64,000 nt of DNA from a virus (taxonomy: Duplodnaviria > Heunggongvirae > Uroviricota > Caudoviricetes), in IMG/VR virus record IMGVR_UViG_3300028586_000764. One strand, written 5' to 3'. Position 1 is the first letter of the stretch, and the number at the start of each line of letters is the position of its first letter. The position numbers and the translations under genes were made by a program. The notes below the pieces were generated by a model. The model worked only from the letters and a program-made list of their open reading frames with translations, did no database searches and was not told the origin of the DNA. Below are positions 1 through 54,106 of the stretch, one piece after another.

Positions 1-1164
1 TTACGGATTAGGGAACGGCGCCTGTGGCACGGTGAAGTTGCCGGTATAACGGGCGGCACCGTTGGTGATGCGTACCTCGTCAATGTAGCCAGGGAAGTCG
101 TGGTCCCATCCGCCGTAACGACGCTCTGACCCTACCGACAGGTATCCCGTGGAAACATTTTGTCCGGTGAAGGTGCTAGAGCGCAAAGGCAGGCTCATAC
201 CATTGACGTAGATGGCATTTGTCGTGCCATTTCGCACGATTGCAACGTGGGTCCACTGGTTAAGCGGCATGGAGTAAGCCGCCTGAAGTTGCCCTGAACC
301 ACTGCCGTACCCGCTTAAGCCGATGAGGCCTGTGTTGTGGCAGTAGTACATTTGCCAGCCGGTGCCGTCGCCTGCCACTACCATGCTTCCGCAGGTTTCA
401 CCGCGAGGATTTGGTGGAGGAGCCGTTCGTAGATTGACCCAGGCCTCCACGGTAAATGAACCGGTCAACGAATACGAGGCTTTCCAGGGGAAGGTTGCAT
501 ATCCGCCGGTACCCGTGGCCAAACTGCTCGAACCGAATTTGGCCACTGCGCTTGTGAGTACAGCGCCATTGACAGAGGTACCCGATACCGACGGAGAGCT
601 GCTGTCAGCAAAGGTTGCAGCACCTGACGTTCCGTCGAAGTGCAGCAGCATCCCCAGATTTGCCCGTTGCGGGTCGACCGGCGCCGTAGCAGACCCTGCA
701 AGGGTTAGGTTAGCCGGTGCACTGGTAACATTGGCGGCGGATACTCCAATACTGCCGCTTGCGAGCGCACCTTCAGCCACGGGCGCCCATTGCACATTCA
801 CCGTGCACGACGCGCCGGCCGCTAGGCTACCTGGACTTTGAGAGGTGCCACAGTTATTGGCGGTGGTAGTCAGCCCCGCGCCGGCGAGGCTTACAGTCAA
901 GCCAGTAGCCCCCTCCTTGCCGCTATTTTGAACAACAAAGCCCAGCTGCCCTGCCTGGCCAACGCTGAGCGTACCAAAGCTCAAACCCTGCGAGGGAGAT
1001 AGCTGCAGCTGCGCTCGTGTAGCAGGGGCAGTGCCCGGCGCCGCCTGCACAACTAGCGTCTGTTTTGCGACCCTCATCTGGTAAGGCCCGGCTTGCGCGA
1101 TACTTGCCATAGCCAGCACTCCCAATAGAATGCCCGTCAGGCGCGGTAGAGAGGGGTATTTCAC
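1..1164 (-). CDS. secreted protein with Ig-like (choice-of-anchor-D-like) beta-sandwich region and C-terminal LamG/concanavalin-A-like lectin domain
   Basis: ORF 1..1266(-) is complete with its stop at 1-3. The preferred start is GTG at 1164, with GGAG 7 nt upstream, giving the signal peptide MKYPSLPRLTGILLGVLAMASIAQA. The protein has a G/S/T-rich region with ASCTVNVQWAP and a LamG-like WTHVAIVRNG...YVNG segment. The alternative start is at 1266. Confidence 0.7.
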   Translation of the reverse strand: MKYPSLPRLTGILLGVLAMASIAQAGPYQMRVAKQTLVVQAAPGTAPATRAQLQLSPSQGLSFGTLSVGQAGQLGFVVQNSGKEGATGLTVSLAGAGLTTTANNCGTSQSPGSLAAGASCTVNVQWAPVAEGALASGSIGVSAANVTSAPANLTLAGSATAPVDPQRANLGMLLHFDGTSGAATFADSSSPSVSGTSVNGAVLTSAVAKFGSSSLATGTGGYATFPWKASYSLTGSFTVEAWVNLRTAPPPNPRGETCGSMVVAGDGTGWQMYYCHNTGLIGLSGYGSGSGQLQAAYSMPLNQWTHVAIVRNGTTNAIYVNGMSLPLRSSTFTGQNVSTGYLSVGSERRYGGWDHDFPGYIDEVRITNGAARYTGNFTVPQAPFPNP

Positions 1165-1277
1165 TTTCAAACTCCGTGAGAATAATCCAAGTGTAGGGAT
1201 AGCGTTTAGCAGTGCGGCACCCCTTGTACGTCGACATCCAGTAACGTGCAGCCATGTTTCGAGCATTACCGTTCTTT

Positions 1278-1320
1278 GCTACACCTCATAGGAAAGAACA
1301 ACTTTTTTAAAAGGACACAA
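1278..1320 (+). promoter_or_regulatory. variant of recurrent upstream element (GCTACAC-N5-AGGAAAGAACAAC, then AAGGACACAAC RBS) for the 1322 gene
   Basis: The sequence is ttGCTACACctcatAGGAAAGAACAACttttttaaAAGGACACAACATG. It belongs to the motif family described in the findings. Confidence 0.4.
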
Positions 1321-1321
1321 C

Positions 1322-2773
1322 ATGACTGAAACGATGGACGCGCCGGAAGCTCTTGGTTTTCGTATCGAAGGCGAGTATTTCACGTCGCTGATGCGCGACA
1401 TGGTTCGTGAAGGCCGGTGGCGAAAAGCCTATGACATCCTGATGGACGGCCTGGAGGGTATTGGTGCTGGCGCCGTGCTGGATGTCCTTCGCGGTGCAAA
1501 GAAGCTCGTTGGGGTCAACAACCTCGACCTGGCAAGCGACGACGCGGAGCCAACTATCAAGGCATGGCTGGACTATCAGTTCCGGAACTGTTTCTCGTTC
1601 CGAGGCCACCTTTACCGTCCCTACGGCTACGTAGGAGGTTCCCAACAAAAGGACTACACGCTGGCGCAGCAGATTTTCCGCGGCGAAGATGAGCAAATGA
1701 GGCGGAATCGGATGTGGCGAAAAGCTGATTCGGAACTGTCGGAGCAATCCCAAATCAAGAGCTTCAATCCGTGGAAAGAGAATTACGAGTCAGTGCTGCA
1801 GCATCGCCCTGCATACTATGCAAGCGACCGTAGCCGAGACATCTGTATTATGGTCAACCTGAGCCCGGGCGAATATCGCCCAGTGATGTGCGAAGAAGTG
1901 GAAGCTGACGTGCCGCTCTGGTATGTCATGCCGACAAAAGCTGCTGATGTCATCCGTCAGGCCCATGCGAACTATCCACTTCCGGACCTGTTCGACGGTA
2001 CGATGGACCCGCCGGCGCCGCCCCGTCCGAAACCACAGGTCTCCGAAGAGACTCGGCGAGCACGCGCTGCAGCTGAAGACGCTCGAGCACAGGAAGTACA
2101 GGAAGCCCAAGCTGCCCGTATTGCCCGAATGCGCGATGACGTCGTGGCGTTTGCGGATGCTGACAGCGAGTTTGGTTGGCTAGAGCTGTCTGCCTATGAC
2201 GACCAGGCAAAACGTAACGTCCAGCTACGTGTCCCACATCGCGCGTTCATTTGCGCTGCGCTGGACCGAGCCCAGGCACAGCACCTGATGCCCGAGTACG
2301 CGCCCCGGTGCCCCACTGGCTTGAAACTGATGAATGACGACCCATACCACTCGGACGCCTGGCTTGGCGCCGGCATGGAGGTGGAGACCGCATATAATCG
2401 CGAACTGCCGGAGCAGCGCCTGTTCATGGACAAGCTCTACGAGCTGCAGCGTAAGCGCCTGGGCTTTGCGTTTGACGTGCTGGCGCGCGGCAAGGAAGAT
2501 TACGTGACAGGCACCGTCATTCATGACCCTGAGCTGGCATCCGAGGAGTCCATTCTGGTCGTGAAAACCGCTGCGCCGGAATACGCTCCTGCAGCGGTCA
2601 AATGCAAGGCGGTCATTGTCGAAACCGGCTCCAAGCTGGCGCACCTGGTGGTGGTTAGCCGAGAAGAAGCCATCTCGGTAATTCGCACGGAAAACGCTGT
2701 CGAGAAATTCCCGCAAGGTCACCAGGTCAGCATCAACTTCTCCGCCGGCACGGTATCCTTGCTGGCGCGTTAA
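1322..2773 (+). CDS. hypothetical protein with C-terminal PEP-utilising-enzyme mobile (swivel) domain-like segment
   Basis: The ATG has an AAGGA RBS. The C-terminus AVIVETGSKLAHLVVVSREEAISVIRTENA...GHQVSINFSAGTV resembles the GGRTSHAAIIARE swivel-domain pattern. A terminator follows. Confidence 0.75.
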   Translation: MTETMDAPEALGFRIEGEYFTSLMRDMVREGRWRKAYDILMDGLEGIGAGAVLDVLRGAKKLVGVNNLDLASDDAEPTIKAWLDYQFRNCFSFRGHLYRPYGYVGGSQQKDYTLAQQIFRGEDEQMRRNRMWRKADSELSEQSQIKSFNPWKENYESVLQHRPAYYASDRSRDICIMVNLSPGEYRPVMCEEVEADVPLWYVMPTKAADVIRQAHANYPLPDLFDGTMDPPAPPRPKPQVSEETRRARAAAEDARAQEVQEAQAARIARMRDDVVAFADADSEFGWLELSAYDDQAKRNVQLRVPHRAFICAALDRAQAQHLMPEYAPRCPTGLKLMNDDPYHSDAWLGAGMEVETAYNRELPEQRLFMDKLYELQRKRLGFAFDVLARGKEDYVTGTVIHDPELASEESILVVKTAAPEYAPAAVKCKAVIVETGSKLAHLVVVSREEAISVIRTENAVEKFPQGHQVSINFSAGTVSLLAR

Positions 2774-2917: not shown

Positions 2918-4651
2918 TTAGTTTGCTTCTTGCGGTGCTTCTGGAGCCGGAGCCGAGGCTTCGGCAGCCGAGGCGTTCAGCACGCCGCTCATGCCGACAG
3001 CCGATGCCACCAGAGCGTCCATGTTGCCGCCACCTTTCAGACCGACTTCAGCGAGCAGGCCGTCGACGACGGGCTGGCTGGTGCGATACCGCAGTGCAGC
3101 GGTGACCACTTCGTTGCCCAGGCCACCACCGGCAGCACCGTTGCCAGCAGCGGTACCAGCTGCGCCGGCACCACCAGTCAGGCCACCGACTTCCGCGATG
3201 CGGATGGAGTCGATGTTTTCCAGCGGCTTGACGCTCTGCTCGATGATTGCCGGCAGGACTGCCAGCAGCTGCATCTTGACTTGCTGAGCGATGACTTCCG
3301 GCGACAGCGCGTTTTGAGCTTCGTTTTTCTCGCGCAGTGCGGTTGCAACTGCGTTACCTTCGGCGATGGTCGCTTCGGCGCGCAGCAGTGCTGCGTCCTT
3401 GTCACCTTCGGCACGGGTACGTGCGGCGTTTGCCAGGTCTTCTGCAGCGTTGCGTTCGGCTTCAGCAGCCACCAGCACGGCAGTCGATTCCTTGCGAGCT
3501 TCTTCTTCAGCGCGGACCAGGGTCACGGCCTTGCTACGATTGGCGATTTCCACCTCACGTGCAGTGGTGACCTGTTCTTCAGCAGCGACAGCCAGGGCGC
3601 GAGCCTTAGCAGCTTCCGCTTCAGCAGCAGCTTCCTGCTCGCTCTTCTTCGCCACGGTGATGGCCTGGTCTTGGGCCGCCAGGCGAATCGTCGTTTCGGC
3701 GTCGATTTGCGCAGTTTCCACCGCTTTCTTCTTGGTCGCTTCCGACTGGGCAACGGCACGCTCGGTGTCGATGCGCTTCTGGGCGATGTTCTGGTTGGCG
3801 TCCAGGTCGGCCGATTCCGCACGTTGGCGACCTTCGGCTTTCACGCGTGCGACTTCGGCTTCTTGGGTTGCCGTCATCGTTGCGATTTCCTGTTCGTTCT
3901 GCAGTTCGGCTTCCGACTGGCTACGCTTCAGGGCCAGGGTCTGCTGGGTTGCAGCCAGGTCCTTCTCGGCGATTGCCACGCGGGTATCTTGCTTGGTAGC
4001 GTTGATATCGCGACGACGGGCTTCGGTCTGACGGGTCAGCTGGGCCAGACCTTCGGCGTCGAACGCGTTGTTCGCATCGAAGTACTGGGCTTCGGTCTGG
4101 TTGAGAGCGGTCAGCGAGACCGATTCCAGTTCCAGACCGTTGGTCAGCAGGTCTTCCTTGACGCTGTTCTTCACGGCTTGCGTGAATTCAGCGCGCTTTT
4201 CGTGCAGCTCGTGCATCGACATGGTTCCTGCGACAGCACGCAATGCGGCGACGAACTTCGCTTCGACCTGCGCCTTGAGCTTGACAGGGTCATTGGTCAT
4301 GGCGCCCAGGGTCGTTGCGGCCGTAGAAATGGACGCAGCGTCGGCCTTCACTCGAACGAAGAAGTCCACCTTGACGTCGACTCGCATCTTGTCGCCAGCA
4401 ACGAGAGCATCGTGCTTGCTGCGTTCGACAGACAGCGGCAGCGTCTTCATGTTGACGTACGTTGCCGTATGCAGTCGTGGCAGAACGAAAGCGCCACCGT
4501 TGAGCACCACCTTTTCGCCGCCCACGCCGGTGCGGATGAACGCACGTTCTTTGGACGAGATGATGTAGAACTTCATCACCACCATGCCAACGACGGCCAG
4601 TGCGATGAGAATGCCGATGATAACGCCGGCGGTCGACAGAATTGCGCTCAT
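2918..4651 (-). CDS. yqiK: flotillin / SPFH (band-7) family protein, YqiK-like
   Basis: The 577-aa protein has an N-terminal TM segment and an SPFH domain. It has a long Ala/Glu/Gln-rich coiled coil and a Gly/Ala-rich C-terminus. There is an AGGAG RBS 5 nt from the ATG. Confidence 0.9.
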   Translation of the reverse strand: MSAILSTAGVIIGILIALAVVGMVVMKFYIISSKERAFIRTGVGGEKVVLNGGAFVLPRLHTATYVNMKTLPLSVERSKHDALVAGDKMRVDVKVDFFVRVKADAASISTAATTLGAMTNDPVKLKAQVEAKFVAALRAVAGTMSMHELHEKRAEFTQAVKNSVKEDLLTNGLELESVSLTALNQTEAQYFDANNAFDAEGLAQLTRQTEARRRDINATKQDTRVAIAEKDLAATQQTLALKRSQSEAELQNEQEIATMTATQEAEVARVKAEGRQRAESADLDANQNIAQKRIDTERAVAQSEATKKKAVETAQIDAETTIRLAAQDQAITVAKKSEQEAAAEAEAAKARALAVAAEEQVTTAREVEIANRSKAVTLVRAEEEARKESTAVLVAAEAERNAAEDLANAARTRAEGDKDAALLRAEATIAEGNAVATALREKNEAQNALSPEVIAQQVKMQLLAVLPAIIEQSVKPLENIDSIRIAEVGGLTGGAGAAGTAAGNGAAGGGLGNEVVTAALRYRTSQPVVDGLLAEVGLKGGGNMDALVASAVGMSGVLNASAAEASAPAPEAPQEAN

Positions 4652-4711
4652 AAAAACTCCTAGATGTGGTATTGAACTGTTGTAAAAAACTTGTGCCCGA
4701 AAGCGTATGCG

Positions 4712-5317
4712 TTAGGTGCCGAGTCGAGTGGCGATGTAGCCACCTGCAGTCGGTTCCAGTAACTTGACGGTTTCCCCTAGAGCGAAAGCTCCGTCGTCCG
4801 ACGGGCAAATCATCACGTAGTGGGTTTGACCGTGGCGGTCAGTGAATTTGGCTTCGCCAAAGAGTTGCTTGGTCGCGCAGGGGCTTAGCAGCTCCACTTC
4901 TTGACCAATGAACTCATGGGGCTCGAGTGCAGTGGTGTGAACCACTTTCCACTGCTTGAACGACTTGGCAATCATTCGCAACAGGACGACTGCGCCAGCG
5001 ATTGCGAGCAGCAGGGCCACCACCAATGGCACACTGGTACCCGATGCGAGTTGCCCCACACCTTGCACAGCGACACCGGTGGCGCCAAAGCCGAGCAGCA
5101 ATAACGTGATTGCCGACGACAAGGGCATTTCGCGGATGAATAGCCAGTTCAGCACCGGAGAGTCTGGCAACGCACTGGTGTCGACTATTGAGTCGACCAG
5201 CGGGGATACTCCCGCACCGACCAACATCGATGCCAGGAGCTCGAACACACAAAAGCCGAGCATTGCGACCAGAACGCCAGAAAACACAGCCACGTCTGGG
5301 CTTAGAAAAAATTCCAT
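4712..5317 (-). CDS. yqiJ: NfeD-like membrane protein (YqiJ-like), upstream partner of the flotillin
   Basis: The 201-aa protein has several TM helices plus a C-terminal OB-like segment. It has the classic yqiJ-yqiK operon arrangement and an AGGAA RBS. Confidence 0.8.
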   Translation of the reverse strand: MEFFLSPDVAVFSGVLVAMLGFCVFELLASMLVGAGVSPLVDSIVDTSALPDSPVLNWLFIREMPLSSAITLLLLGFGATGVAVQGVGQLASGTSVPLVVALLLAIAGAVVLLRMIAKSFKQWKVVHTTALEPHEFIGQEVELLSPCATKQLFGEAKFTDRHGQTHYVMICPSDDGAFALGETVKLLEPTAGGYIATRLGT

Positions 5318-5772: not shown

Positions 5773-5774
5773 AA

Positions 5775-6704
5775 TCATGCTGCTTGTCGTTCGCCTACGT
5801 CAGGCTCGAAGAACGAGAATCGCAACTGCGGCACCGTGAATCGGCTTTGCATGCGCTCTTCGACTTCATTGATGGCAAAAACTAATGCCAGGTCCGACGG
5901 CATACGTCGCATTTGCACCTTGAGCGCGACCATGATGTAGGTCACGTAATCCTGGGTAATCATGTTGATGACGTGCTCGACTTCCGGCTGGGATTCGACG
6001 AAAGCGCGAATTTCCGCTTCGAGTACCGGATTAACGGACTCGCCGGCGTTCATACTTTTCACTTCCAACACCACCAGCATCGCGACCACGCACAGCAGCA
6101 CACCTACGCCTATGGTGCCGAGGGCATCGAACACCGGGTTGCCGGTGATGGCCGTCGCCACAAGAGCGAGAAGCGCTATAGCCAGGCCAGCAAGGGCCGC
6201 CACGTCTTCGCTTACGCAAACCAGCAGTGTTGACTGGCGCGTACTACGGAACCATTGCCAGAGTGTCTGAGTGCCACGTTCTTTTGCGGCCGCACGAAGC
6301 GCACCACGAAGAGCGTAACCTTCAGCTGCGACAGCAACAGCCAGTACGACAATCGAGTAGCCCAGGTATTTCACGGGTTCAGGATGCTTGAGCGCTTCCC
6401 AGCCGTGGTGGATAGAGAAGGCGCCGCCTACGCTGAAAAGTAGGAGTGCGACCATCAGCGCCCAGAAGTGCGCGTCACGGCCAAAGCCCATGGGGTGAGC
6501 CTTGGTAGGTGCTTTGCGAGCTTGTTTGATGCCGATGAGCAGTAACACCTGATTGCCGCAGTCAGCAAAGCTATGCAGCGACTCTGCCAGCAGCGAGCTG
6601 CTGCCGGTCATGACGGCCGCGACAGTTTTTGCCACAGCGATGCCGAGGTTAGCGCCAAGCGCAGTCAGAATTGGTTTCAGGGAATTGCCTGAGCTAAGGT
6701 CCAT
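5775..6704 (-). CDS. cation diffusion facilitator (CDF) family metal efflux transporter
   Basis: The 309-aa protein has 6 TM segments, an HSFADCGNQ motif and a C-terminal cytoplasmic domain. Confidence 0.9.
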   Translation of the reverse strand: MDLSSGNSLKPILTALGANLGIAVAKTVAAVMTGSSSLLAESLHSFADCGNQVLLLIGIKQARKAPTKAHPMGFGRDAHFWALMVALLLFSVGGAFSIHHGWEALKHPEPVKYLGYSIVVLAVAVAAEGYALRGALRAAAKERGTQTLWQWFRSTRQSTLLVCVSEDVAALAGLAIALLALVATAITGNPVFDALGTIGVGVLLCVVAMLVVLEVKSMNAGESVNPVLEAEIRAFVESQPEVEHVINMITQDYVTYIMVALKVQMRRMPSDLALVFAINEVEERMQSRFTVPQLRFSFFEPDVGERQAA

Positions 6705-16724: not shown

Positions 16725-17336
16725 TTACTCCTGCGAGTTACGGCGTGCGCGGAAGCGAATCACGCCGAAGCCCAAGACCAGCATGCCTAATGCCAGCAGT
16801 CCGGTCTTCATGGCCTGGTCTCGATGAGACTGTACCCAAGAAAGCCAGCTCGCCGGATTTTTCAGGTCAAAGCCGACCGCGACGACAGGCGCAGCTGGGG
16901 CAGCTGCAGGCGTAGTGGTGGGCGCGCTTTTTTGCTCGTTGAGCGGGTCGACACCTGCCTTGGCAGCCTGTGCCATCGTGGCGTATGTCATAACGGGCTG
17001 GCCTGCAACGGGAGTGCTGGTCGAGGGGGTCCCGGCCGGGTTGGATGCGGCAGCTTTATTAGTCGGGTCCGAGGCAGGAATCATCGGCATTCCCGAAGGG
17101 GACGTTGCAGTGCCTGTCGTGGTCGTGGCCGTAGGCGTCGAAGCCGCGGCCGGGGCCGAAGTTGGCGCGGGCCGCTCTTTCACCAGAAGGGGCATTTGAA
17201 CGTCGGCGCGCTTAGCCGGCAGCGCATCTGGCGTGGGCACGTCGAACTTTTTCACATAGGGTTGAGCCTGGTCGGCGGCGCTGGCGCTTACGCACGTCGC
17301 AAGCAGCGCGGTCAACAAAAGGTTTCGCATTGGCAA
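16725..17336 (-). CDS. secreted Pro/Thr/Ala-rich protein with C-terminal TM anchor and basic tail
   Basis: The signal peptide is MRNLLLTALLATCVSASA. The protein is low complexity and ends in ...TGLLALGMLVLGFGVIRFRARRNSQE. Confidence 0.65.
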   Translation of the reverse strand: MPMRNLLLTALLATCVSASAADQAQPYVKKFDVPTPDALPAKRADVQMPLLVKERPAPTSAPAAASTPTATTTTGTATSPSGMPMIPASDPTNKAAASNPAGTPSTSTPVAGQPVMTYATMAQAAKAGVDPLNEQKSAPTTTPAAAPAAPVVAVGFDLKNPASWLSWVQSHRDQAMKTGLLALGMLVLGFGVIRFRARRNSQE

Positions 17337-25218: not shown

Positions 25219-25334
25219 CCAATTATGTAGCAAGTTGACTTTATCCCAAAGCACTGGCTAACCGATTGCTGCTGCGGACGAGTCGGCGTTGCCTAGACAA
25301 CGTTGAAGATACTTTAATGAGTATAAAGCGCCAC

Positions 25335-25362
25335 GCTATACCGGGAGGACCGCGGACTATAC
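25335..25362 (+). promoter_or_regulatory. recurrent upstream element (GCTATAC-N4-AGGACCGC, then CTATAC)
   Basis: The sequence is cacGCTATACcgggAGGACCGCggaCTATACgtcg, about 50 nt upstream of 25413. Confidence 0.4.
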
Positions 25363-25412
25363 GTCGTATGACCGTCTCGGCATATCACTATTCACACGAA
25401 TCAAGAGGCGCC

Positions 25413-31719: not shown

Positions 31720-31739
31720 GCTATAGGTGAGAGGACATG
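31720..31739 (+). promoter_or_regulatory. recurrent upstream element (GCTATAG-N5-AGGACATG) for DNA polymerase
   Basis: The sequence is ctaGCTATAGgtgagAGGACATGgg, about 55 nt upstream of 31793. Confidence 0.45.
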
Positions 31740-31792
31740 GGACGTGGATATACGTCCTTTCAATTTTTAGCAACGAGAGGAGATTTACCTTT

Positions 31793-34700
31793 ATGCAACT
31801 CGGATTCGATTTGGTCTATACCGACCCGAACACGCACGAAATCGTGCCTTGGGCAATGCCTGACACGAAGCTGTTTGCCCGTATCGAAGCGGCACCATGG
31901 AAAGTGGTCGACGTGGAGACTACCGGCCTGAATCCTGCAAGCAAGGAACAGAAGTTCTCCGGCAAGGAACTGCGTCGGGGTATCAACCCGGTGCTGCGCC
32001 TACGCATTCTGTCGGTGCTGTACCCGATGATTGGTACGGCCAAAGGCTACGACGTCGTCGCTTTCGACTTCGACCAGATGACCCAGAAGGAACGTGAACA
32101 AGCGGCTACGGCTTCGATGAACAATGTCGTCATCGCACACAACGCCGGCTTCGACGCGTACTGGATTCGCCAGTTCACGAAAGTGACGCCGAAGCTGTTG
32201 CTGGACTCGATGCTGATGGCCCGCGTGCTGCGCCCTGAACACCCGCTGGTCATGGCGCGCATCTGCAACGACGAGAACGAGGACCCGGACATCAAGGCGG
32301 AAGCCGAAGCGATGTTCATGCAGGGCCGCTCGGGCTGGTCGCTTGCCGACCTGTCGGTAGGCGTTCTGCGTCGTATTCTGCCTAAGGGCCTGCAAGGTCC
32401 TAAAAACTGGGCAGAGCCGTTCCTGACGCAAGCGAACTACAACTACGCCACCGATGACGTCCGGGTGCTGCACGACCTGCTGCTGGACCTGTTCGAAATC
32501 GACAGTTGTGACCAGCTGCTGGAGCGCTACTATGAGCTGCGCGCAGAGAATCGCGTGCTGCGCATCATTGAGCCCCAGGTGCTGGACATCGTGATGATGC
32601 GGGAACACGGCATGCCGTGGGACCAAGCTGAAGCTGCGAAGTACATCGAAGTCCAGTGGGACAAGGTGCGTCAGTTTGCAAAGCGCATGGTGGAACTCGA
32701 ACCGGCCCTGGCCAAGTTCGAGCGCGACCTGGGCGATGCCGGCAAAGGCATTACGGCCAACCTCAAAACCGCTATCGGCGAAGCATTTGCCGCCCGCGGC
32801 CTCGAGCTGGAGATGACGGAGAAATCCAACACCTTCAAGATTGGCGAGAAAGACTTGCGTCGTGCTCGCGCACAGGTCAGCGACGATGCCCGGGAACTGT
32901 TTGACACCTGGGTCGGCCTGAACCGTGCAAAGAAAGCTGGCGGTATGGCCATGGAAGTGACGGGCTACGCGGTACGCTCTCCTCAACGGGATAGCCGTCT
33001 GCATCCGAACACGGGCCACGGTCCGGTGACGGGCCGTCTGTCGTCATCCGAGCCGAACTGCTTCACCGGCGACACCGAAATCCTCACGCTTCAAGGCTGG
33101 GTGCGTTTCGACGAGCTGGACGATGATGCCAAAGTCGCGCAGTACGTCGACGGCCGTATCGAGTTCGTGAGCACGCTCGACGTGATTCGCGAAGACTGGG
33201 AAGGCACCCTGGTGCACAACCAGACCTCGAGCACTGACCTGCTGACGACGCCGATGCACCGCTGCCTGCTGATTGACCCCGTGTCGAAAAAGCAACGCGT
33301 GGTGATGGCCGAGGACTATCCGGAAGGCTATCGCCAGCTGCACGGCGGTATGTACGCGGGCGGCGAAGGCTTGGGCGTGAACGAAGCAGAACTGCGCTTC
33401 CTCGTCATGGGCCACGCTGCCGGCAGCTGGGAAGAAGACGGTTCGTTCACGCTGCGCTTCTCGCGTGCGCGTAAAGCAGAACGTTTCCTGAAGCTGTTTG
33501 CCAACCTGGACCCGATGGCCAACGTGCTGTCGACCGATGCACGCAGCTTCCGTTTCGGACCGACGCACGAACTCACCGAGCTGGCTGAGCTGTACCTGGG
33601 ACACGACTACGAATTCGGTTTCGGCGAATGGGTATTCTCCCTGAGCCGTGAGCAAATCGAGGTGTTCTTCGACGAGCTGACCCGTACGGATGCGACCCAC
33701 GCGAAGCCGACCAAGGCCTATCGTGCCCAGTATGTGGCTACTCGCAAGAGCGACGCAGACATGGTTCAAGCCCTGTATGCGGTGTCGGGTGCAATGGCCC
33801 GCGTGCAGTCGAATCTGGACAAGAAGACCGGAGAACAAACCTGGACCGTCAAGGCGGTGCAACGCGACTACACGTTCACCACTAACCGCACGCAAGAGCT
33901 CAAGCCTTACAAGGGCAAGGTTTACTGCGTGACGGTGCCGAGCAGCTTTATCGTGGTTCGCCACGGTGACAGCCTGCCGATGGTGACGGGTCAGTGCCAG
34001 CAGTTCCCGCGTGACCAGGGCTTCCGTAACTGTGTGATGGCGCCGGAAGGCTACAAAATCATGGCATCGGACTATTCCGCACTGGACATGCGTGTGGGTG
34101 CTGCACTGGCAATTCGTGCGCAGCGACATATCTTCGAGGCGTACATGGGCGACCGGGCAGTACATCCGGACGCAGCACGTGTGATTGCCCGGGTGTATGA
34201 AGGCAAGATTTCGATGGAAGCCGCTCGCGCCGAGGAAGCTCGTGCCGTTAAGGCCTTCGGTGACTGGAAAGCTCGTCGTGAAGACGTCGCTGACGCAATG
34301 GACGCTCGCAAGCGTTACTGGGAAGAGTACCGCAAACGTGCTCGCACCCAGCTGCTCGCCGGCTTCCAGCGCTGCCTGAAGGAAGTTCGACTGAAGGCCG
34401 ACTCCGAGGGCACCTCGGAGTGGGGTTCGCTGCGCGATGCGTTCAACATCGAAGGCATGGACATCCACACCTGGACCGCGCTGGGCATGGTGGGTGAAGA
34501 CCCGAAAGCGCTGTTCTCGGGCCTGTCCGGAGAAGACGTCGCCAAGTCGCTCAAAGAGTGGAAGAAGAAGCTCGGCGACAAGCGTCAAACCGGTAAGGTC
34601 GGTAACTTGTCGCTGCTGTATGCGATGAAGACCCAGGGCCTGATGGATGCTGCAGCTAAAAACTACAACATCCACTGGACTTACGAGGAAGCCGACAAGG

Positions 34701-35149
34701 TGCGCAACGATTGGCTGGCCGCTTACGTCGAAATCGACCTGTGGCACAAGTGGACCGAGCTCAACCCGGCAGAACAAGTGTATGTGCCAGACTTCGACCG
34801 CGGCGGCAAGTTCGCCAAGAAAGAGGTTTACGCATCGTACACGCTGGGTGACCGCCTCATCTACGCCTTCGGCCTGAACGCTGCTCTGTCGTACGAGGAC
34901 CAATCGACCGGCGCTGACATTCTGGGCCTGGTGATGCAAACGCTGCGGGAGTTCCATCCGGACATCTTCGATAGCGTCATCAACCAGGTGCACGATGAAT
35001 TGGTGTTCATGCTGCCTGACGAGAAAGTCGAGGAATGGACCGAGATTGTTCAGCGGGTCATGACTGAGTGCGCTGAGCACTTCCTGATGCAGTTCGGCGT
35101 GCGTGGTGAATGCTCTCCGGCTACGGGTCAGGTCTGGCTCAAGGACTGA
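31793..35149 (+). CDS. family-A DNA polymerase with N-terminal 3'-5' exonuclease domain, interrupted by an intein
   Basis: The exonuclease motifs are VVDVETTG, VIAHNAGFDAYW and YATDDVRVLHDL. The polymerase motifs are RLSSSEPN|intein|CQQFPRD, DYSALDMR (A), KRQTGKVGNLSLLYAM (B) and VHDELVF (C). There is a GAGGAG RBS. Confidence 0.95.
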   Translation: MQLGFDLVYTDPNTHEIVPWAMPDTKLFARIEAAPWKVVDVETTGLNPASKEQKFSGKELRRGINPVLRLRILSVLYPMIGTAKGYDVVAFDFDQMTQKEREQAATASMNNVVIAHNAGFDAYWIRQFTKVTPKLLLDSMLMARVLRPEHPLVMARICNDENEDPDIKAEAEAMFMQGRSGWSLADLSVGVLRRILPKGLQGPKNWAEPFLTQANYNYATDDVRVLHDLLLDLFEIDSCDQLLERYYELRAENRVLRIIEPQVLDIVMMREHGMPWDQAEAAKYIEVQWDKVRQFAKRMVELEPALAKFERDLGDAGKGITANLKTAIGEAFAARGLELEMTEKSNTFKIGEKDLRRARAQVSDDARELFDTWVGLNRAKKAGGMAMEVTGYAVRSPQRDSRLHPNTGHGPVTGRLSSSEPNCFTGDTEILTLQGWVRFDELDDDAKVAQYVDGRIEFVSTLDVIREDWEGTLVHNQTSSTDLLTTPMHRCLLIDPVSKKQRVVMAEDYPEGYRQLHGGMYAGGEGLGVNEAELRFLVMGHAAGSWEEDGSFTLRFSRARKAERFLKLFANLDPMANVLSTDARSFRFGPTHELTELAELYLGHDYEFGFGEWVFSLSREQIEVFFDELTRTDATHAKPTKAYRAQYVATRKSDADMVQALYAVSGAMARVQSNLDKKTGEQTWTVKAVQRDYTFTTNRTQELKPYKGKVYCVTVPSSFIVVRHGDSLPMVTGQCQQFPRDQGFRNCVMAPEGYKIMASDYSALDMRVGAALAIRAQRHIFEAYMGDRAVHPDAARVIARVYEGKISMEAARAEEARAVKAFGDWKARREDVADAMDARKRYWEEYRKRARTQLLAGFQRCLKEVRLKADSEGTSEWGSLRDAFNIEGMDIHTWTALGMVGEDPKALFSGLSGEDVAKSLKEWKKKLGDKRQTGKVGNLSLLYAMKTQGLMDAAAKNYNIHWTYEEADKVRNDWLAAYVEIDLWHKWTELNPAEQVYVPDFDRGGKFAKKEVYASYTLGDRLIYAFGLNAALSYEDQSTGADILGLVMQTLREFHPDIFDSVINQVHDELVFMLPDEKVEEWTEIVQRVMTECAEHFLMQFGVRGECSPATGQVWLKD
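33059..33994 (+). other. intein (312 aa) inserted in polymerase motif between SSSEPN and CQQFPRD
   Basis: The intein starts CFTGDTEILT and ends ...VVRHGDSLPMVTGQ before +1 Cys. Degenerate LAGLIDADG-like segments are present (LVMGHAAGSWEEDGSF). It is in-frame with both exteins. Confidence 0.75.
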
Positions 35150-46696: not shown

Positions 46697-46747
46697 AGGA
46701 ACGAGAGCTCTCGGCCGACTACATTAAACATCTCGCAAGGAGTCTGT

Positions 46748-47185: not shown

Positions 47186-47217
47186 CGCGTCACGATAATT
47201 CAAAAACCAACTTCACG

Positions 47218-47559: not shown

Positions 47560-47586
47560 ATTGTACTGGCAAGGGAAACTTCCGAC

Positions 47587-47623
47587 AAAAAAGCCCTCCT
47601 TGCATCACTGCGAGGAGGGCTTT
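47587..47623 (-). terminator. rho-independent terminator
   Basis: The minus strand reads gccctcctcgc-agtgatgca-aggagggc followed by TTTTTT. Confidence 0.75.
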
Positions 47624-47636
47624 GTCAATCAGTACA

Positions 47637-48323
47637 TCAGCCTTGGTTGAACAGCACCCAAGGGCAGTCGGCTTTCTTGGCTTGCGCGAAGAATACCTTC
47701 AGCTCGGCCGGGCAAGTCGAGTCTTCCAGCGCTCGGCTGGTGTAGACCATGAATTCCCAGACACCAGGTTCCTTGTCATTGCCGCGGTGCGCGAAGCTAC
47801 CGTTGGCTTGAATCCAGGCCCAAGCCGGCAGCTGGTCTGGGGTGTCATACTCGAAGTTATCGGTCATGTCGACTTCGAACACGTGTACGACCCGGTCTTG
47901 GTACATCGGCGTCGGAACCACCTTTGCTTCCAGTTCTCCAAGGGAGAGCGTCAGCGTCTGGGTGTCTCGGCCGAGGACCTCGAACCATTCGTCATACTCA
48001 GGTTCATAGCCGCCGCCGTCCGCGTTGATGATGGCGATTGCCTCTTCATCACTTGGCGCGTCATCACGGTAGACGTTGAACACGTCCTGGCCATGCTTGT
48101 GGTGATGCACGATACTCCACGATACGACTTGCACCGTGATGCGGCGCTCCTCGTTAGGACTCGCAGCTTGCCGTTGTGCGGCGGAAGCAGCATTCCAGGA
48201 CGCGTAGCCGTGCATCTTGGCCACGAGTTCGAGCGATTCACCAACGGCCAGGCTTGCGCCCTTTTGCGCATAAGCTTCGCGCAGCATGCGGGCCTGTTCT
48301 TTCAGTTGCGGAGTGCGATGCAT
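47637..48323 (-). CDS. hypothetical protein (228 aa)
   Basis: There is an AAAGGAA RBS 5 nt from the ATG. It lies immediately downstream of the group II intron. Confidence 0.65.
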   Translation of the reverse strand: MHRTPQLKEQARMLREAYAQKGASLAVGESLELVAKMHGYASWNAASAAQRQAASPNEERRITVQVVSWSIVHHHKHGQDVFNVYRDDAPSDEEAIAIINADGGGYEPEYDEWFEVLGRDTQTLTLSLGELEAKVVPTPMYQDRVVHVFEVDMTDNFEYDTPDQLPAWAWIQANGSFAHRGNDKEPGVWEFMVYTSRALEDSTCPAELKVFFAQAKKADCPWVLFNQG

Positions 48324-48389
48324 GAGTCTTTCCTTTCACAATCGCGAAGGTTCCGAGCTCCCAATACGTATTGGGTCCGGAATGCGGTG

Positions 48390-50724
48390 GTGGGTAGGAG
48401 CACTGTCTCGCGACAAACACTCCCCCCTATAAACCGTACGTGCGAGTTTCCCCGCATACGGCTTCAATCAACGGAAAGTCGGGCGGGCCCGACCGGCAAT
48501 AGAAACTTGAAACCTGTGGCATGGCCCCTCGTGTGACAGAGGGGGTGAAGTAGAGCGAGGTTTTCCGAGGTGTTGGGACCCTTATCGACCCGGCGAACCA
48601 GGTGATGAGTGTGCCAACGAGTAAGCCTCGTGATAGCCTCGGCACAGACGGGGCAAAGCCCTTTCTGTCGCCTCCACAAATACAGCAGCCGGCGTCGGCC
48701 TTGAAGATTGTTCTCCATTTGCACGGAGAATCGCTCCTCGAAGTAGGTTTCGAACGCTGGGTTGAACGGTTGAGCCTCCTCTCGAATCTTCACATGGCGA
48801 CGGATGACCGTCTCCAGTGCGTATCTCAAGGTTAGCAGTTTCCGTTCACCATTCTTCTGTATTTCCGTGGTGCTGAAGCGGAAGGTACGGGCGCCGACAG
48901 GTTTGAAGTACCTGGAGAGTATCCAGGGCCTCGACTTGTTCGGATGCCGTCTCTTCGCCCAGCGCCAAAGCGCTTGCCATATTTCTTTGTCGACGTTGTT
49001 GTAAGTGTCTTTCGACACCACGTGCTGATGGTAGTTAGCCCAGCCCCGAATCTTTGGATTCAAGACCTTAATCAGCAGACTTTGTGGCGACGTACGATGT
49101 TTCCGTATTGTCGTCCTGACCGCGTCGAGGAACGTTTTCACGTTCTTCTTGGCCGGCTTGATGAGCAGTTTTTCCTTAGATGTACCATGGTGGTACTTCC
49201 GGACGTTCTGCCCCAGGAAGTCAAAGCCTGTTCCAACGTGGGTCACCTTAGTCTTCTCCTCGGAGAGGGTCAGACCTCGGCTTGCCAGGAAGTCGCGCAC
49301 GAGCGGTTTGACCTTGTCTTCGAGCAGCTCTTTCGAGCTACCCGTGATGACGAAGTCGTCCGCGTACCGGACCACTTGAACTTGTGACTTGGCGGCGATA
49401 TGATGCTTGACGCGCTTCAGACCGTGGGAACGACCGAAGTGTTCAATCAGCAAATCTTCCAGCCCGTCGAGAGCCAAGTTGGCCAAGATGGGAGAGATGA
49501 GTCCCCCTTGTGGCGTACCTTCCGTTGTTGGATACAACGAACCTTTGTCGACAAACCCCGCCTTCAGCCATTTTTCCAACACGCTAGTGTCGGTGCAGAT
49601 GTTTTTCAACATCCAGCCGTGACTGATATGGTCGAAGCAACCCTTGATATCGCCTTCTAACACCCATGCCGCGGATTTCTTGTGCGAGAGGAGTGAGAAG
49701 AGTTTGGCGATAGCGTCCGCGGTCGAGCGTGCAGGTCGGAACCCGTAGCTGTTCCAGTCGGCCGTGGTCTCCGAGACGGGTTCCAGCGCCAGCGCGTGCA
49801 GAGCCTGCATTGCGCGGTCCTTCATCGTCGGGATTCCCAGGGGACGTTTCTTTCCATTGGCTTTGGGGATGTACACGCGTCGTAGCGGTTTCGGCTGGTA
49901 GCCTTTGCGCACGAGCGTCCCAATAGCTTTTGCTTTGGCCTGCGGAGAGTCCCAGGTTACCCCGTCGACTCCCGCAGTCCGTTTGCCTTGATTTTCAGTT
50001 ACTCGTCGAACTGCCAAGGCTTTGGCAGAATACGAGTGCGTCAGCAACCATTGCAGGGCTTTCACCTTGCGCCAGTGCTTCAGCTCAGTTGCCTTCGCGA
50101 TGCGTACTTGCAGCTTCCTTACCTCCAGATGACAACGTGCCCAGTCGATGCTGTGCCAGTCGATACCTGTAGTGGGAGCCGCATCCGCACCGAATGCTAC
50201 TTTCGTAGCGTCTAATGCAGTCATTTGCTTGTCCCCCTAAAGAGAAGTTCCGCGAGTTATTTCGCGATGTTGACAAGAACTAAGTCAGCCGGCTTTCACC
50301 GCGGTGCAAAGCACCTATCACACCGATTACAGGTGCGCGTTCGCTTCTTAGTTCATCCTCTACCCTCTAAGCCATGGGCGTTCCTTGCGGTCAGCTTGCT
50401 CGCCTTGCGGAGAGCGACTTATAGGGCTTACCCCGGTCTCGTTGATGCAACACTACTGGGTTAGGTCCCACCTATACACCGTGCGCTTGAATGTCCGTGC
50501 AGTCCCAATTCCTAGGGGATTTGCCAGCGCGTGCCTTTTGGCTTGAGTCTGTCAGCTTTTTTGACTCATTCGCAGTAACGGCGATTATCAGTGGTTCACG
50601 TGAGTTGACCATACCAGTAAGCCTAGTCCTATCCCAGATAAAGCTTCCAGGTTCACTTCGTGCCTCACGGCCCGACTTGTGACACTCTTTCGAGTTTCGG
50701 TACATTGTCCTCCGAGCTTCACAC
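48390..50724 (-). mobile_element. group II intron (ORF-containing, with domain V/VI); boundaries approximate
   Basis: Domain V, GAGCCGTATGCGGGGAAACTCGCACGTACGGTT, lies on the minus strand at about 48416-48450. Domain VI-like GGGGGAGUG...GCUCCUACCC with a bulged UA follows, and the 3' end is at about 48390. The candidate 5' GUGUG is at about 50724. The protein ORF sits in domain IV. Confidence 0.8.
48464..50224 (-). CDS. group II intron-encoded protein: reverse transcriptase / maturase / HNH endonuclease
   Basis: The RT motifs are RPLGIPT and YADDFVI. The maturase domain is RGWANYH. The C-terminal zinc finger/HNH is CPVCAEAI...WHTHHLV...CHTRGH. It ends just before domain V. Confidence 0.9.
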
Positions 50725-50816
50725 CCCGCAGTTACCCGCGACGCATGTCAGAGTAGGCTACTCTCGACGGAACGAGAGGTTTCCCTAACCAAAAAGATGG
50801 CCTGAAACAATTGCAA

Positions 50817-51671: not shown

Positions 51672-51681
51672 TTACATTCAG

Positions 51682-51709
51682 CCCACGGCACCCTGCCGTG
51701 GGTTTTTTT
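51682..51709 (+). terminator. rho-independent terminator
   Basis: The hairpin cccacggca-ccc-tgccgtggg is followed by TTTTTTT. Confidence 0.85.
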
Positions 51710-51863
51710 ATTACAAGCACATTAGAGGCGTTCGAGCAGGTTCAGCAAATGGGGCCGCAGCCGTTAGGTTAGTTTTAAGAAGAGTTCCCAGGCTCAAAGG
51801 GCTAAACCATAGTTCATATTTTATGAAGATACGCAGCTTTCTTGACCGATTTAAGCCTCCAAT

Positions 51864-52145
51864 ATGACCAAACAACACCTCTCCATGCTGCTGGCGCTGG
51901 CCGTACTGGCAGGCTGCTCGGCACAAGATAAACCGGCGGCGCCACCAACCGCTAAACCGCCTGCTAGCACGGCCCCGGTCGCGGTCATTGTAGACGTCCC
52001 GGCTAGCCCTGCCCCTGTAGTGCCACCAGCCCCCCGCGTGGTGGCGCCAAAGCCGAAAGTTCAAAAGCAAGGTAATGCGATGCCTGAACTCACCCCGCAG
52101 GAGTTCGCTGCGTTAAAGGCTCGTTTGTCCGCGCCAGGCCGCTAA
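51864..52145 (+). CDS. small Pro/Ala-rich lipoprotein (93 aa)
   Basis: The signal peptide is MTKQHLSMLLALAVLAGC with an LAGC lipobox. The RBS is weak. Confidence 0.6.
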   Translation: MTKQHLSMLLALAVLAGCSAQDKPAAPPTAKPPASTAPVAVIVDVPASPAPVVPPAPRVVAPKPKVQKQGNAMPELTPQEFAALKARLSAPGR

Positions 52146-52270
52146 TTGTTAGCAAAAGATGGGACCCGCTCCTGTTCAGCAGACAGTTCGCTAGACAACC
52201 TATGGAGCGTGTCTATCAAAGCTGACTGCACATCGACCGCCCTCACCAACTTCTCGGCTCCACTACACGA

Positions 52271-54106
52271 ATGAAAAAAATCTCCTCTCTTATCATGGGA
52301 GTCGCGCTCACTGCTTCAAGCCTGTCGGCTGTTGCAGCTCAATACGAAACGCGAATTCTCATCAAAACTCTGAAGGTTACGGGCAGCCCGCAACCTGGCA
52401 CCGGCACGCCGGGAACCGGAACGACGCCTGGCACCGGTGGCACGGGTGGCTCCGGTACAGGAGGCACGGGCGACACGTCTACGCCGTCCTCGAAAGCCGT
52501 GACCCTGACTCCGGGCTCTACGGACTTTGGTGCGCTTCAAGTGGGCGAGACTTCCACCGTCCGCGCTTTCCTGTTGAGCAATCCGGACACCGTCGACAAG
52601 GCGATTTCGGACATTCATGTCAATGGTGCTGACTTCAAACTGTCCGGCAACCAATGCGGCACAACGCTGGCCGCGGGTAGTACCTGCAACATCGGCGTGG
52701 TGATGACTGCCGGCGGCCTGGGAGCCTCCTCGGGCTCGTTGTCGGCAACGGTTGCTGGTCAAGTGCTAACCGCGTCCCTGACGGGCACGGGCAAGTCGGT
52801 TGACGCCGCTCTGCAGGCGTCCCCTGCTTCCGTCGACTTCGGCGCCGGTGTAACTGGCCAATCGTCGGAGGTGAAGACAGTTTCACTTCACAACTCGAAC
52901 GATGTCGCTGTCCAGTTCAGTGGTTTCTCGATGGATAGCGCCACCAAAGCGAATTTCAATGTGGACCCCGCTGGCTGCGGGACCTCGCTTGCAGCTGGTG
53001 CGTCGTGCAACCTGTACGTAATGATGACCCCCTCGCAGGCGGGCGCTCTTTCGGGTAGTATCTCGATTGTCGCGGGCGGTCGTCTAACGAACGTGGCGCT
53101 GAGCGGTAGCGCTGTAGCCGCGACCAAATCCATCGCCAACTCAGGCTGGACCACTTTGACCGCCGAGCCTGGCCGTCCGAGCACTGGCTCTGTTGCCCTC
53201 AGCAACACAGGCAACTCGACAATCCGCCTGGGCGCGATTTCCACCGGAACGCCATACTTCTCGATTACCAGCAATGAATGCGGTACCGAGTTGGCTCCTG
53301 AAGGCTATTGCACGGTCACCGTTCAGTTCTCGCCTAACAAGGCCGGCGACTTCGCGGACACGCTGACCATTGAGAGCGATGCGACAAACAACGCTTCACT
53401 CCAGCTAACGGGTACAGGTATCGCCCCGCAGCCGCACCTGGACCAGATTTCTGGCGGCTACTTCGGCACTCCGTACGTGAACACCACGGACTCGACCACT
53501 GTCGTATTCCAGAACACCGGCCAAGTTCTCACGAAAGTGGGCACCATCAGCTACCAGGGTACTGGCGGCACTACCGCGCCGGCATCCACTGTGTTTAACG
53601 TGACTTCCGACACCTGTACTGGCGCGTCGCTCGCACCAGGTGCTACCTGTAATGTGGTCGTGGCTTTGACCGGTAAGCAAGAACCAACCAGCTATTCGAT
53701 GTCCATCTACCCGAAATACGGTGAGACTGGCACGGAAGCGACGAGCTATGGCTATGTGGGTGGTAATTTCCACTACATGTACACCGCGATGACGGCTACG
53801 AACTTTGGCGGCACGTTCAACTCGACCACCCCGGACAGCACTCCAATTGCGTTCCAGACTTCTGGTGGCACTTCGCAGCGCACCTTCACGCTGACCAGCC
53901 GCGACTCTGCTCCTGGCACCGTGACCGTGGCGAGCTCTAACGCACCTGAGTTTGTCATCAGCTCGAACACCTGCCTTGGTACCCTGGCGCCGAACCGCAG
54001 CTGCACGTTTGTGGTCACCTTCAAATCAGCCGGCTCCGGACAACGCGCTGGCAACATCAACATCGGTGGCGCCACCAAGATGTCAGTCAGCCTGACGGGC
54101 AACTAA
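52271..54106 (+). CDS. large secreted protein built from about 5 Ig-like (choice-of-anchor-D-like/ASH-like) repeats
   Basis: The signal peptide is MKKISSLIMGVALTASSLSAVAAQ. A repeating pattern L.P...FG...VG..S......N.G...I.I..I...G..F......CG..LA.G.SC...V.F.P is present. There is an N-terminal G/T-rich linker. Confidence 0.8.
   Translation: MKKISSLIMGVALTASSLSAVAAQYETRILIKTLKVTGSPQPGTGTPGTGTTPGTGGTGGSGTGGTGDTSTPSSKAVTLTPGSTDFGALQVGETSTVRAFLLSNPDTVDKAISDIHVNGADFKLSGNQCGTTLAAGSTCNIGVVMTAGGLGASSGSLSATVAGQVLTASLTGTGKSVDAALQASPASVDFGAGVTGQSSEVKTVSLHNSNDVAVQFSGFSMDSATKANFNVDPAGCGTSLAAGASCNLYVMMTPSQAGALSGSISIVAGGRLTNVALSGSAVAATKSIANSGWTTLTAEPGRPSTGSVALSNTGNSTIRLGAISTGTPYFSITSNECGTELAPEGYCTVTVQFSPNKAGDFADTLTIESDATNNASLQLTGTGIAPQPHLDQISGGYFGTPYVNTTDSTTVVFQNTGQVLTKVGTISYQGTGGTTAPASTVFNVTSDTCTGASLAPGATCNVVVALTGKQEPTSYSMSIYPKYGETGTEATSYGYVGGNFHYMYTAMTATNFGGTFNSTTPDSTPIAFQTSGGTSQRTFTLTSRDSAPGTVTVASSNAPEFVISSNTCLGTLAPNRSCTFVVTFKSAGSGQRAGNINIGGATKMSVSLTGN

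Follow-up and report, generated by a model that had tools for sequence, protein, structure and literature searches.

The question raised by this locus is where two proteins encoded by a very large phage would act if both carry the same immunoglobulin (Ig)-like module and both are predicted to leave the cytoplasm: on the virus particle, or in the envelope of the infected cell. The locus is a 64,000-nucleotide stretch of DNA, hereafter the window (IMG/VR record IMGVR_UViG_3300028586_000764, Caudoviricetes), in which gene A (1..1164, minus strand) encodes a protein of 387 aa and gene B (52271..54106, plus strand) one of 611 aa. Little is understood about the proteins that lytic and huge phages secrete and that are not part of the virion, and our search of the literature on secreted proteins of huge phages yielded nothing useful. 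An original prediction, made from the sequence alone, had described both products as large secreted proteins and had offered virion decoration, host-surface adhesion or a secreted effector function as their possible roles. The overall picture towards which we lean, without strong commitment, is that A and B act at the infected cell, in its envelope or on its surface, and are not parts of the virus particle. What is new here, and was not noted in the original prediction, is an N-terminal leader common to A and B and to unrelated passenger domains; the domain families themselves are already catalogued.

Two complete proteins built on one Ig-like module

Both open reading frames (ORFs) are complete, and the description of their products as large is a relative one at 387 and 611 aa. 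The minus-strand frame of gene A is open from 1266 down and ends with a stop codon at 1-3; it starts with GTG at 1164, with GGAG 9 nt upstream, and the resulting N-terminus (MKYPSLPRL) agrees with those of the orthologues P0122-P0124 and with a 387-aa gene call (P0173) that is identical to A and lies on an 810-kb metagenomic contig. The plus-strand reading of 1..1164 is interrupted by stops throughout all three frames and was rejected; the original prediction had not specified a strand. A protein 100% identical to B (P0001, on an 810-kb contig) is publicly called as 603 aa starting at Met9; we set this start aside and retained the MKK start, which gives 611 aa, because the orthologues begin MKP(L/I)SSL. 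Proteins identical to A and to B occur together on one 810,191-bp metagenomic contig.

The two proteins share a module of about 100 aa, present once in A and in five copies behind a Gly/Thr-rich linker in B, much as first proposed and as now delimited by module boundaries and by the five stretches of B that match the NCBIfam choice-of-anchor-D (CoA-D) model choice_anch_D (NF012200). The single CoA-D/ASH-type module of A lies at 679..1011 on the minus strand (aa 52-162, with Cys105 and Cys120). The tandem of B occupies 52496..54103 on the plus strand and divides into repeats R1 (52496-52804, aa 76-178), R2 (52805-53125, aa 179-285), R3 (53126-53431, aa 286-387), R4 (53432-53782, aa 388-504) and R5 (53783-54103, aa 505-611), with two cysteines in each. 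B is a CoA-D member by curated cut-off (E 1.4e-52, 176.8 bits against a cut-off of 45), and it also exceeds the cut-offs of the models HYDIN_VesB_CFA65-like_Ig, Cep192_D4 and ASH (PF22544, PF22073 and PF15780). The module of A remains under the 45-bit cut-off of NF012200 (E 8.4e-10, 39.1 bits), and its aa 56-142 give weak matches to ASH, CARDB and HYDIN-type Ig models (Pfam ASH, 22.5 against a cut-off of 27), yet by sequence comparison it is clearly homologous to the repeats of B: BLASTP aligns A and B at E 3e-07 with 34% identity across the module, and hhalign matches the A-family module profile to the five B repeats over 92 columns (probability 98.3%, E 2.4e-14). Pairwise identity among the six modules is 20-39%. 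The residue pattern given for the repeat in the original prediction agrees with the consensus of 60 homologues (FG..VG..S...N.G.....F....CG..LA.G.SC...V.F.P), and a hidden Markov model (HMM) of the six modules, run against the six-frame translation of the window, found no further copy.

The assignment of the repeats to choice-of-anchor-D/ASH-type beta-sandwiches, and with it their Ig-like folding, is borne out by Pfam, NCBIfam, AlphaFold2 and Foldseek. The AlphaFold2 model of B (60 homologues; mean predicted local distance difference test score, pLDDT, 82.5) features five beta-sandwiches behind a disordered N-terminal stretch (aa 1-71), with pLDDT mostly >90 in R1-R3 and about 50-91 per 10-residue block in R4-R5. 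In a Foldseek search of the Protein Data Bank (PDB), the top matches of B are ASH-domain proteins of the ciliary central apparatus (9ijj, 7sqc and 7som; E 9e-28 to 1e-19), followed at lower ranks by general Ig arrays such as titin, an RTX adhesin and PrgB; among PDB chains B has no sequence relative. The repeats differ in their conservation, R4 being 86% conserved among orthologues versus 63-67% for the other repeats, and R4 is a candidate functional site. The closest orthologues (P0002-P0005) have four modules and lack R1, which the more distant P0006 has. As a separate observation, R4 holds a Tyr/Gly-rich insertion (YPKYGETGTEATSYGYVGGNFHYMY) in which AlphaFold confidence is low.

The C-terminal domain of A is a LamG/concanavalin A (ConA)-like jelly roll, and here too the earlier call stands. 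It spans 4..657 on the minus strand (aa ~170-387, with Cys258 and Cys275) and matches Laminin_G_3 (PF13385) at aa 218-370 with E 4e-20 and 72.9 bits against a cut-off of 27.6. The AlphaFold2 model of A (44 aligned homologues; mean pLDDT 86.5) combines a disordered N-terminus (aa 1-45) and a beta-sandwich (aa 53-160) with a jelly roll at aa 170-387, where pLDDT is mostly >90. Its Foldseek matches in the PDB are ConA-like and mostly carbohydrate-binding jelly rolls, among them 4dqa (BACOVA_03559; E 2e-08), AbnA and its domain 4 (5hon, TM-score 0.67 on the target), the receptor-binding domain BoNT Hc, trans-sialidases and a pentraxin, all at no more than 21% identity. The domain ends with a conserved stretch, ID(E/D)VR.T.G.ARYT..FT.P..FP, and its fold suggests that it may have lectin activity. 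A thus resembles the Laminin_G_3 domains of 4dqa, AbnA domain 4, BoNT Hc and phage-tail LamG proteins in being a jelly roll with an HMM score well above cut-off, and differs from other such domains in that this one is fused behind a single CoA-D module and a secretion leader in a stand-alone protein of 387 aa.

Predicted signal peptides and paired cysteines

We infer the export of A and B from sequence features, the signal peptides having been read from the sequence and with a heuristic scan. Both proteins begin with a predicted Sec signal peptide that has a basic n-region, a hydrophobic h-region and an AxA site. In A it covers aa 1-25 (1090..1164, minus strand; MKYPSLPRLTGILLGVLAMASIAQA), with predicted cleavage between ASIAQA and GPYQ, where the next residue is G, and orthologue conservation supports it. 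In B it covers aa 1-22 (52271..52336, plus strand; MKKISSLIMGVALTASSLSAVA), with predicted cleavage between LSAVA and AQYE, where the next residue is A, and it is kept in P0003, P0005 and P0006. Signal peptides with AxA sites are preserved in every full-length orthologue of A and B. Furthermore, the cysteines are distributed in pairs: the ten of B fall two to a module, the four of A two to the Ig-like module and two to the LamG domain, and they are invariant in the modules that every aligned orthologue has (R2-R5 in B, the one module in A). This pattern points to disulfide bonds that would be formed outside the cytoplasm. The label 'secreted' is thus well matched by conserved n-h-c signal peptides with AxA sites and by paired cysteines, and because these features coincide with a replication and auxiliary gene setting, export of A and B to the envelope or the medium appears much more likely than virion decoration.

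The name 'choice of anchor' derives from C-terminal signals, such as PEP-CTERM, LPXTG or the C-terminal domain of the type IX secretion system, which are not required for the domain. A ends with its LamG domain (...APFPNP) and B with its fifth repeat (...MSVSLTGN), and neither C-terminus has a hydrophobic tail segment or a sorting motif. Bacterial CoA-D proteins (NF012200, PF22544, PF15780) have the same beta-sandwich of about 100 aa with the signature FG..VG...N.G...CG..LA.G.SC..V.F.P, arrayed in tandem behind a signal peptide; A and B differ from them in being encoded by a huge phage, in lacking any C-terminal sorting anchor and in carrying an N-terminal strand motif with a tether.

A leader common to A, B and unrelated passenger domains

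The leader common to A and B consists of the signal peptide, a strand-like motif of about 12 aa, [YF]xxR[VI]xx[KR]xLxV, and a flexible Pro/Thr/Gly tether. The motif stands just behind the cleavage site in both proteins, as YQMRVAKQTLVV in A (aa 28-39; 1048..1083, minus strand) and as YETRILIKTLKV in B (aa 25-36; 52343..52378, plus strand), and was placed by the leader alignment and a position weight matrix (PWM) scan; a first, strict regular expression had matched B alone and was replaced by these. A Pro/Thr/Gly-rich linker of variable length follows, which is short in A and in B is a flexible Gly/Thr/Pro-rich segment (aa 41-75; 52391..52495, plus strand) with pLDDT <50 and a length that differs among orthologues. 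The leader region is conserved about as well as the folded domains: pairwise identity among orthologues is 63% for aa 26-40 of A versus 39% in the neighbouring linker, and 74% for aa 23-40 of B versus 41% in the linker.

The same leader precedes other proteins, and its passengers are not confined to one domain family. On a 615-kb phage-like contig (L008) it precedes three CoA-D proteins of 743, 1373 and at least 2517 aa, and it is also found on P0043, on a 223-aa CoA-D protein in L011 and on two RCC1-repeat proteins. Just downstream of the B orthologue in L002 (11614..12414), it precedes a 266-aa Gly-rich protein in which a signal peptide, the motif KYTMYVPAKGVIV and a Pro/Thr linker lead into a glycine-rich domain with a faint ALK_LTK_GRD match. 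Finally, it is present on a protein with two CoA-D modules and a LamG domain (P0127) from a plasmid-like contig that carries TrfA, integrase, restriction-modification and czc genes. In a PWM scan of 299,015 six-frame residues (the window plus 13 loci), all hits of at least 18 bits lie directly behind a signal peptide; one hit at or above this score came from outside the training set, and two weak hits were off target. Among the N-termini of the non-orthologous homologues listed, the leader is missing from nearly all, and it is absent from three further predicted exported proteins of the window (16725..17336, 60345..61121 and 62820..63188). Judged by the few proteins that a profile of it retrieves (see below), the leader is either rare or too short to be traced further, and cannot be called widespread.

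Whether the leader serves as a tether, a sorting signal or a TonB-box-like strand is a matter of guesswork. One tentative proposal, which we consider rather unlikely as a whole, is that it constitutes a previously undescribed envelope-targeting or tethering signal by which huge phages and at least one plasmid place a repertoire of binding proteins on the host envelope. Under this proposal the strand could pair with a host envelope protein, a TonB-box-like interaction being one candidate.

Conservation in a lineage of huge phages

The window appears to belong to a huge uncultured phage, as it carries phage hallmark genes and proteins identical to A and B lie on the 810,191-bp contig, far above the 200 kb from which a phage genome counts as huge. 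The phage setting is plausible from strong PHROG matches to rIIA (19337-21838, E 1e-103) and rIIB (22012-23151, E 6e-70), together with a family-A DNA polymerase (PolA) and exonucleases; a primase, an RNase H-like gene and an NTP pyrophosphohydrolase are also present. Among deposited phages, the best relative of rIIA belongs to an uncultured 595-kb huge phage (LR756511, 36% identity). Most window ORFs have no family match, and neither a megablast of positions 30000-50000 nor tblastn of B against 50,697 deposited phages gave a match. Host-like auxiliary genes are interspersed, encoding flotillin/YqiJ, a cation-efflux (CDF) transporter, adenosine deaminase, TerD and TerD-vWA. The genes around A encode a PEP-utiliser, flotillin/YqiJ, the CDF transporter, primase, a GNAT acetyltransferase, a 5'-3' exonuclease and RecD2, and those around B a glyoxalase, a group II intron, TerD/TerF and RNase T. 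Scans of about 50 ORFs of the window with Pfam or PHROGs gave a match to structural families for the LamG part of A alone, and no capsid, terminase or tail gene was seen in the 64 kb plus flanks. The window contains no tRNA gene and no rRNA match.

A and B are maintained in this huge-phage lineage, and in one case the family has expanded. Orthologues of B (P0002-P0005) are 65-80% identical to it and those of A (P0122-P0126) 61-72%, and they are syntenic on metagenomic contigs of 7 kb to 617 kb. The order around B is Glyoxalase_8, a gene of about 205 aa, a gene of about 95 aa, B and, at some distance, RNase_T; in the genome to which the window belongs, A is followed by the GNAT acetyltransferase and then by replication genes, and on the 617-kb contig an A orthologue is followed by a paralogue. 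The genes after B are TerD/TerF here, others in L002 and none of these in L005, and since the genes past B differ among relatives, this is a variable accessory region. The expansion is seen on the 615-kb phage-like contig, where the three CoA-D repeat genes introduced above are clustered (L008, 8001..18232) and each encodes a signal peptide; the cluster adjoins a Phage_T4_Y00F gene and a gene for a class-Ib tRNA synthetase. Beyond the orthologues, B is related at 25-39% identity to multi-domain CoA-D proteins of bacterial or metagenomic origin (the nearest non-orthologue at 38%), which are named as choice-of-anchor D or beta strand repeat-containing proteins. An A-family profile searched against 185,579 bacterial and archaeal species genomes found no relative above ~35-36%, save for two stretches of some 70 residues with 44% identity, and the bacterial-genome matches cover mostly the LamG part alone. 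The best-looking of these, from Sulfuriferula (L015), is a two-LamG protein with neither signal peptide nor CoA-D module, probably from a prophage tail, and was discarded. In IMG/VR we found no orthologue of B, and one unrelated secreted protein of 1313 aa with CoA-D modules.

Infected-cell envelope or virus particle

In the reading that we favour, A and B would be exported through the Sec pathway during infection and stabilised by disulfide bonds, and their shared N-terminal strand would target or tether them, probably by strand pairing with an envelope partner. The rigid CoA-D modules would provide a stalk or binding surface, and the LamG jelly roll, a type of domain with carbohydrate as its usual ligand, would sit at the tip of A. 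As for ligand and biological purpose, which we likewise infer, the two proteins may bind glycans or proteins of the host surface or periplasm, and might thereby mask receptors against superinfection, keep progeny off debris or alter cell adhesion. Several points weigh against this picture. CoA-D and LamG domains are known from phage proteins associated with virions; PHROG families matched by the LamG part of A (E 3.5e-15 to 1.5e-7) bear the annotation baseplate wedge subunit or virion structural protein; and the best matches of B in BFVD are GH5 cellulases of Erwinia and Pseudomonas phages. The leader is disordered in the AlphaFold2 models of A and B (pLDDT <50) and docked nowhere, and a 48-column leader profile retrieved 9 proteins at E <= 1e-3 among 1.84 billion representatives, six of the nine being clusters of input sequences. 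Moreover, export is read from the sequence only, and a periplasm is assumed for the host.

The first of these points also favour the main rival to an envelope location, namely that A and B decorate the virion, either as Hoc-like head decoration or as a lectin-tipped tail or fibre accessory that binds host or environmental glycans. Ig-like and LamG domains are common on phage particles, tblastn of the LamG part of A returns phage tail or ConA-like proteins, and the proteins that B matches in BFVD include phage cellulases, 'Ig' proteins, major tail proteins and an outer capsid protein. Among phage proteins already described, we found CoA-D modules only in endoglucanases of the Erwinia phage S6 Gp95 type (with homologues in phiEaP8 and Skulduggery), whose modules are like those of A and B and which give the best BFVD matches of B (E 1e-23 and 6e-22). 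Gp95 has two CoA-D domains (PMC9544554), and these enzymes have been discussed in the context of cellulose as a receptor. In their architecture, two N-terminal CoA-D domains precede a catalytic GH5 domain, whereas A and B contain no enzyme domain.

We nevertheless regard decoration of the particle as unlikely, and of the roles first offered it fits worst, because proteins with a cleavable Sec signal peptide that is conserved, and with cysteine pairs of the periplasmic type, are ill suited to virion assembly in the cytoplasm; a secreted effector or host-surface adhesion role stays viable. The signal peptides are kept in all full-length orthologues, each module has its pair of invariant cysteines, and the surroundings are replicative, metabolic and auxiliary, with no scanned neighbouring ORF matching a structural family. 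In addition, a close architectural relative lies on the plasmid-like contig with TrfA and integrase, and the PHROG matches are domain-level only, to proteins of 500-6100 aa. Proteins of the T4 Hoc type combine tandem Ig-like domains with a large phage and a proposed weak adhesion to glycans or surfaces. They have no signal peptide and are assembled on the capsid in the cytoplasm, whereas A and B have conserved signal peptides and Cys pairs and belong to a different Ig subfamily (ASH/PapD-like). A Hoc-like protein would be expected to lack a signal peptide and to be encoded in or near a structural module; A and B show neither trait.

A second alternative keeps the surface location and denies the phage a stake in it: A and B would be ordinary CoA-D surface proteins, encoded by passenger genes that were recently acquired from bacteria into an accessory region and have no phage-specific role. 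CoA-D proteins are overwhelmingly bacterial, as are, with metagenomic ones, the 25-39% identical relatives of B past its orthologues; B lies in a variable region, with downstream genes differing between the window, L002 and L005, and its repeat number varies between four and five. We hold this to be improbable in view of the lack of a close bacterial donor, the best matches being ~35% for A (44% over two segments of about 70 residues) and 38% for the nearest non-orthologue of B, and of the several related huge-phage contigs that keep orthologues of 61-80% identity in synteny. The expansion to three genes of up to at least 2517 aa on another huge-phage contig argues for selection within the phage lineage.

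A narrower alternative concerns the leader itself, and holds that its second half, xTLxVx[AGS] on a tether, mimics a TonB box and pairs with the C-terminal domain of the host TonB in the periplasm, either to block TonB-dependent receptors (for superinfection exclusion or uptake shutdown) or to use TonB for positioning. The TonB boxes of receptors and of bacteriocin translocation domains have the same arrangement, near the N-terminus with a flexible linker. In A and B the motif likewise comes a few residues past the predicted cleavage site with a disordered linker behind it, and the A-family leaders read PTLVVTSA, PTLVVSSV and QTLVVQAA; KTLKVTGSP is another example of the motif. The leader and the BtuB box DTLVVTAN thus share a short strand xTLxVx[AS] near the mature N-terminus beside a flexible segment. 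The box of BtuB pairs with the last strand of TonB, and its acidic residue forms a salt bridge with TonB R156 (PMC13253070). Every member of the leader family has K, P or Q in place of this residue, the upstream half [YF]xxR[VI] has no counterpart in TonB boxes, and a barrel, plug or toxin domain is lacking in both A and B. So short a beta-strand motif may also match by chance, and the presence of TonB in the host is presumed. We therefore consider a TonB-box mimic highly unlikely, and treat the likeness of the second half of the leader (xTLxVx[AGST]), seen in the sequence, as a lead only.

Finally, it is barely credible that the window is a piece of a bacterial chromosome or megaplasmid and that A and B are ordinary cell-surface proteins of that bacterium, since the many host-like genes (TerD/TerF, flotillin/YqiJ, CDF transporter, adenosine deaminase) and the great size of related contigs (615-810 kb, one of 1.46 Mb) are set against rIIA and rIIB matches of the strength given above, a phage-type PolA, exonucleases and a primase, a closest rIIA among deposited phages that belongs to the huge phage LR756511, a majority of ORFs with no family match, the absence of tRNA genes and rRNA matches from the 64 kb, and the Phage_T4_Y00F gene on a related contig.

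The lipoprotein-B unit and other neighbouring genes

Directly upstream of B lies a gene for a Pro-rich lipoprotein of 93 aa with the lipobox LAGC (51864..52145, plus strand). It occupies the same position in the close relatives L002 and L005 at 65-69% identity and has no family match; genes of 93 aa that neighbour CoA-D genes on L008, L009 and L011, which are more distant contigs, were compared with it and are not homologous. The lipoprotein gene and B form a discrete unit flanked by two terminator-like hairpins with T-runs on the plus strand, one upstream (51680..51704; 11 pairs, 7 GC) and one 21 nt past the stop codon of B (54127..54154; 12 pairs, 7 GC), and no strong terminator-like site was found between the two genes on the plus strand. 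The lipoprotein is possibly co-transcribed with B; it might act as a partner of B, as an exclusion lipoprotein or in the manner of an o-spanin.

Immediately downstream of this unit, 54309..56394 (plus strand) encodes TerD (226 aa, E 3e-79) and a TerF-like protein with TerD and vWA domains (434 aa), with a promoter-like site at 54309-54337 (score 11/12); TerD/TerF is a variable cassette, as L002 and L005 lack these genes at this position. Some 1.5 kb upstream of the unit, a complete group II intron (48389..50779, minus strand; Rfam Intron_gpII at 48389-48466 and group-II-D1D4-7 at 50626-50779) is missing there in L002 and L005; its ORF (48464-50224, 586 aa) encodes a reverse transcriptase/maturase with RVT_N, RVT_1, GIIM and HNH domains.

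Near A lie a gene for a 483-aa protein with a PEP-utilizers mobile domain (1322..2773, plus strand), genes for flotillin (Band_7+Flot, 577 aa) and its YqiJ/NfeD-like partner (201 aa; 2918..5317, minus strand), and the CDF transporter gene (5775..6704, minus strand). Further predicted exported proteins of the window are a 203-aa protein (16725..17336, minus strand) that has a signal peptide, a long region rich in Pro, Thr and Ala and a hydrophobic segment at its C-terminus, and two predicted lipoproteins with lipoboxes LLTGC and LMSAC (60345..61121 and 62820..63188, both minus strand), and the phage seems to encode many envelope proteins. The gene at 25266..26768 (plus strand) encodes a 500-aa protein with a Schlafen AlbA_2 domain (E 1.5e-5); this protein also matches PHROG 38563, a family of no known function.

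The 1140-aa PolA (31727..35149, plus strand) has an exonuclease match at aa 127-252 and a polymerase match only at aa 950-1138. Its middle (aa ~440-750) matches PHROGs named RNR, ThyA and PhoH, which suggests an intein or other inserted element; no Pfam intein or endonuclease match was obtained in PolA at E <= 0.001. The window's own proteins recur on contigs of 386,723 and 810,191 bp, and a 21-kb neighbourhood of an A orthologue is found both on a 617,110-bp ENA contig (L006) and on a 1,463,929-bp JGI contig (L013, 3300031134 Ga0308158_10000004); such contigs are either assembly concatemers or phage-like genomes well above the usual size range.

Implications for huge-phage biology

If A and B are displayed on or released from infected cells, they would offer a handle on how huge phages manipulate the host surface, be it through superinfection exclusion, glycan binding or aggregation. 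The leader motif provides a short sequence tag with which the remaining exported repertoire may be traced in metagenomes, and if the leader does prove to be a targeting or tethering signal, it would mean that very large phages remodel the surface of the infected cell with a tethered set of adhesins and lectins of their own.

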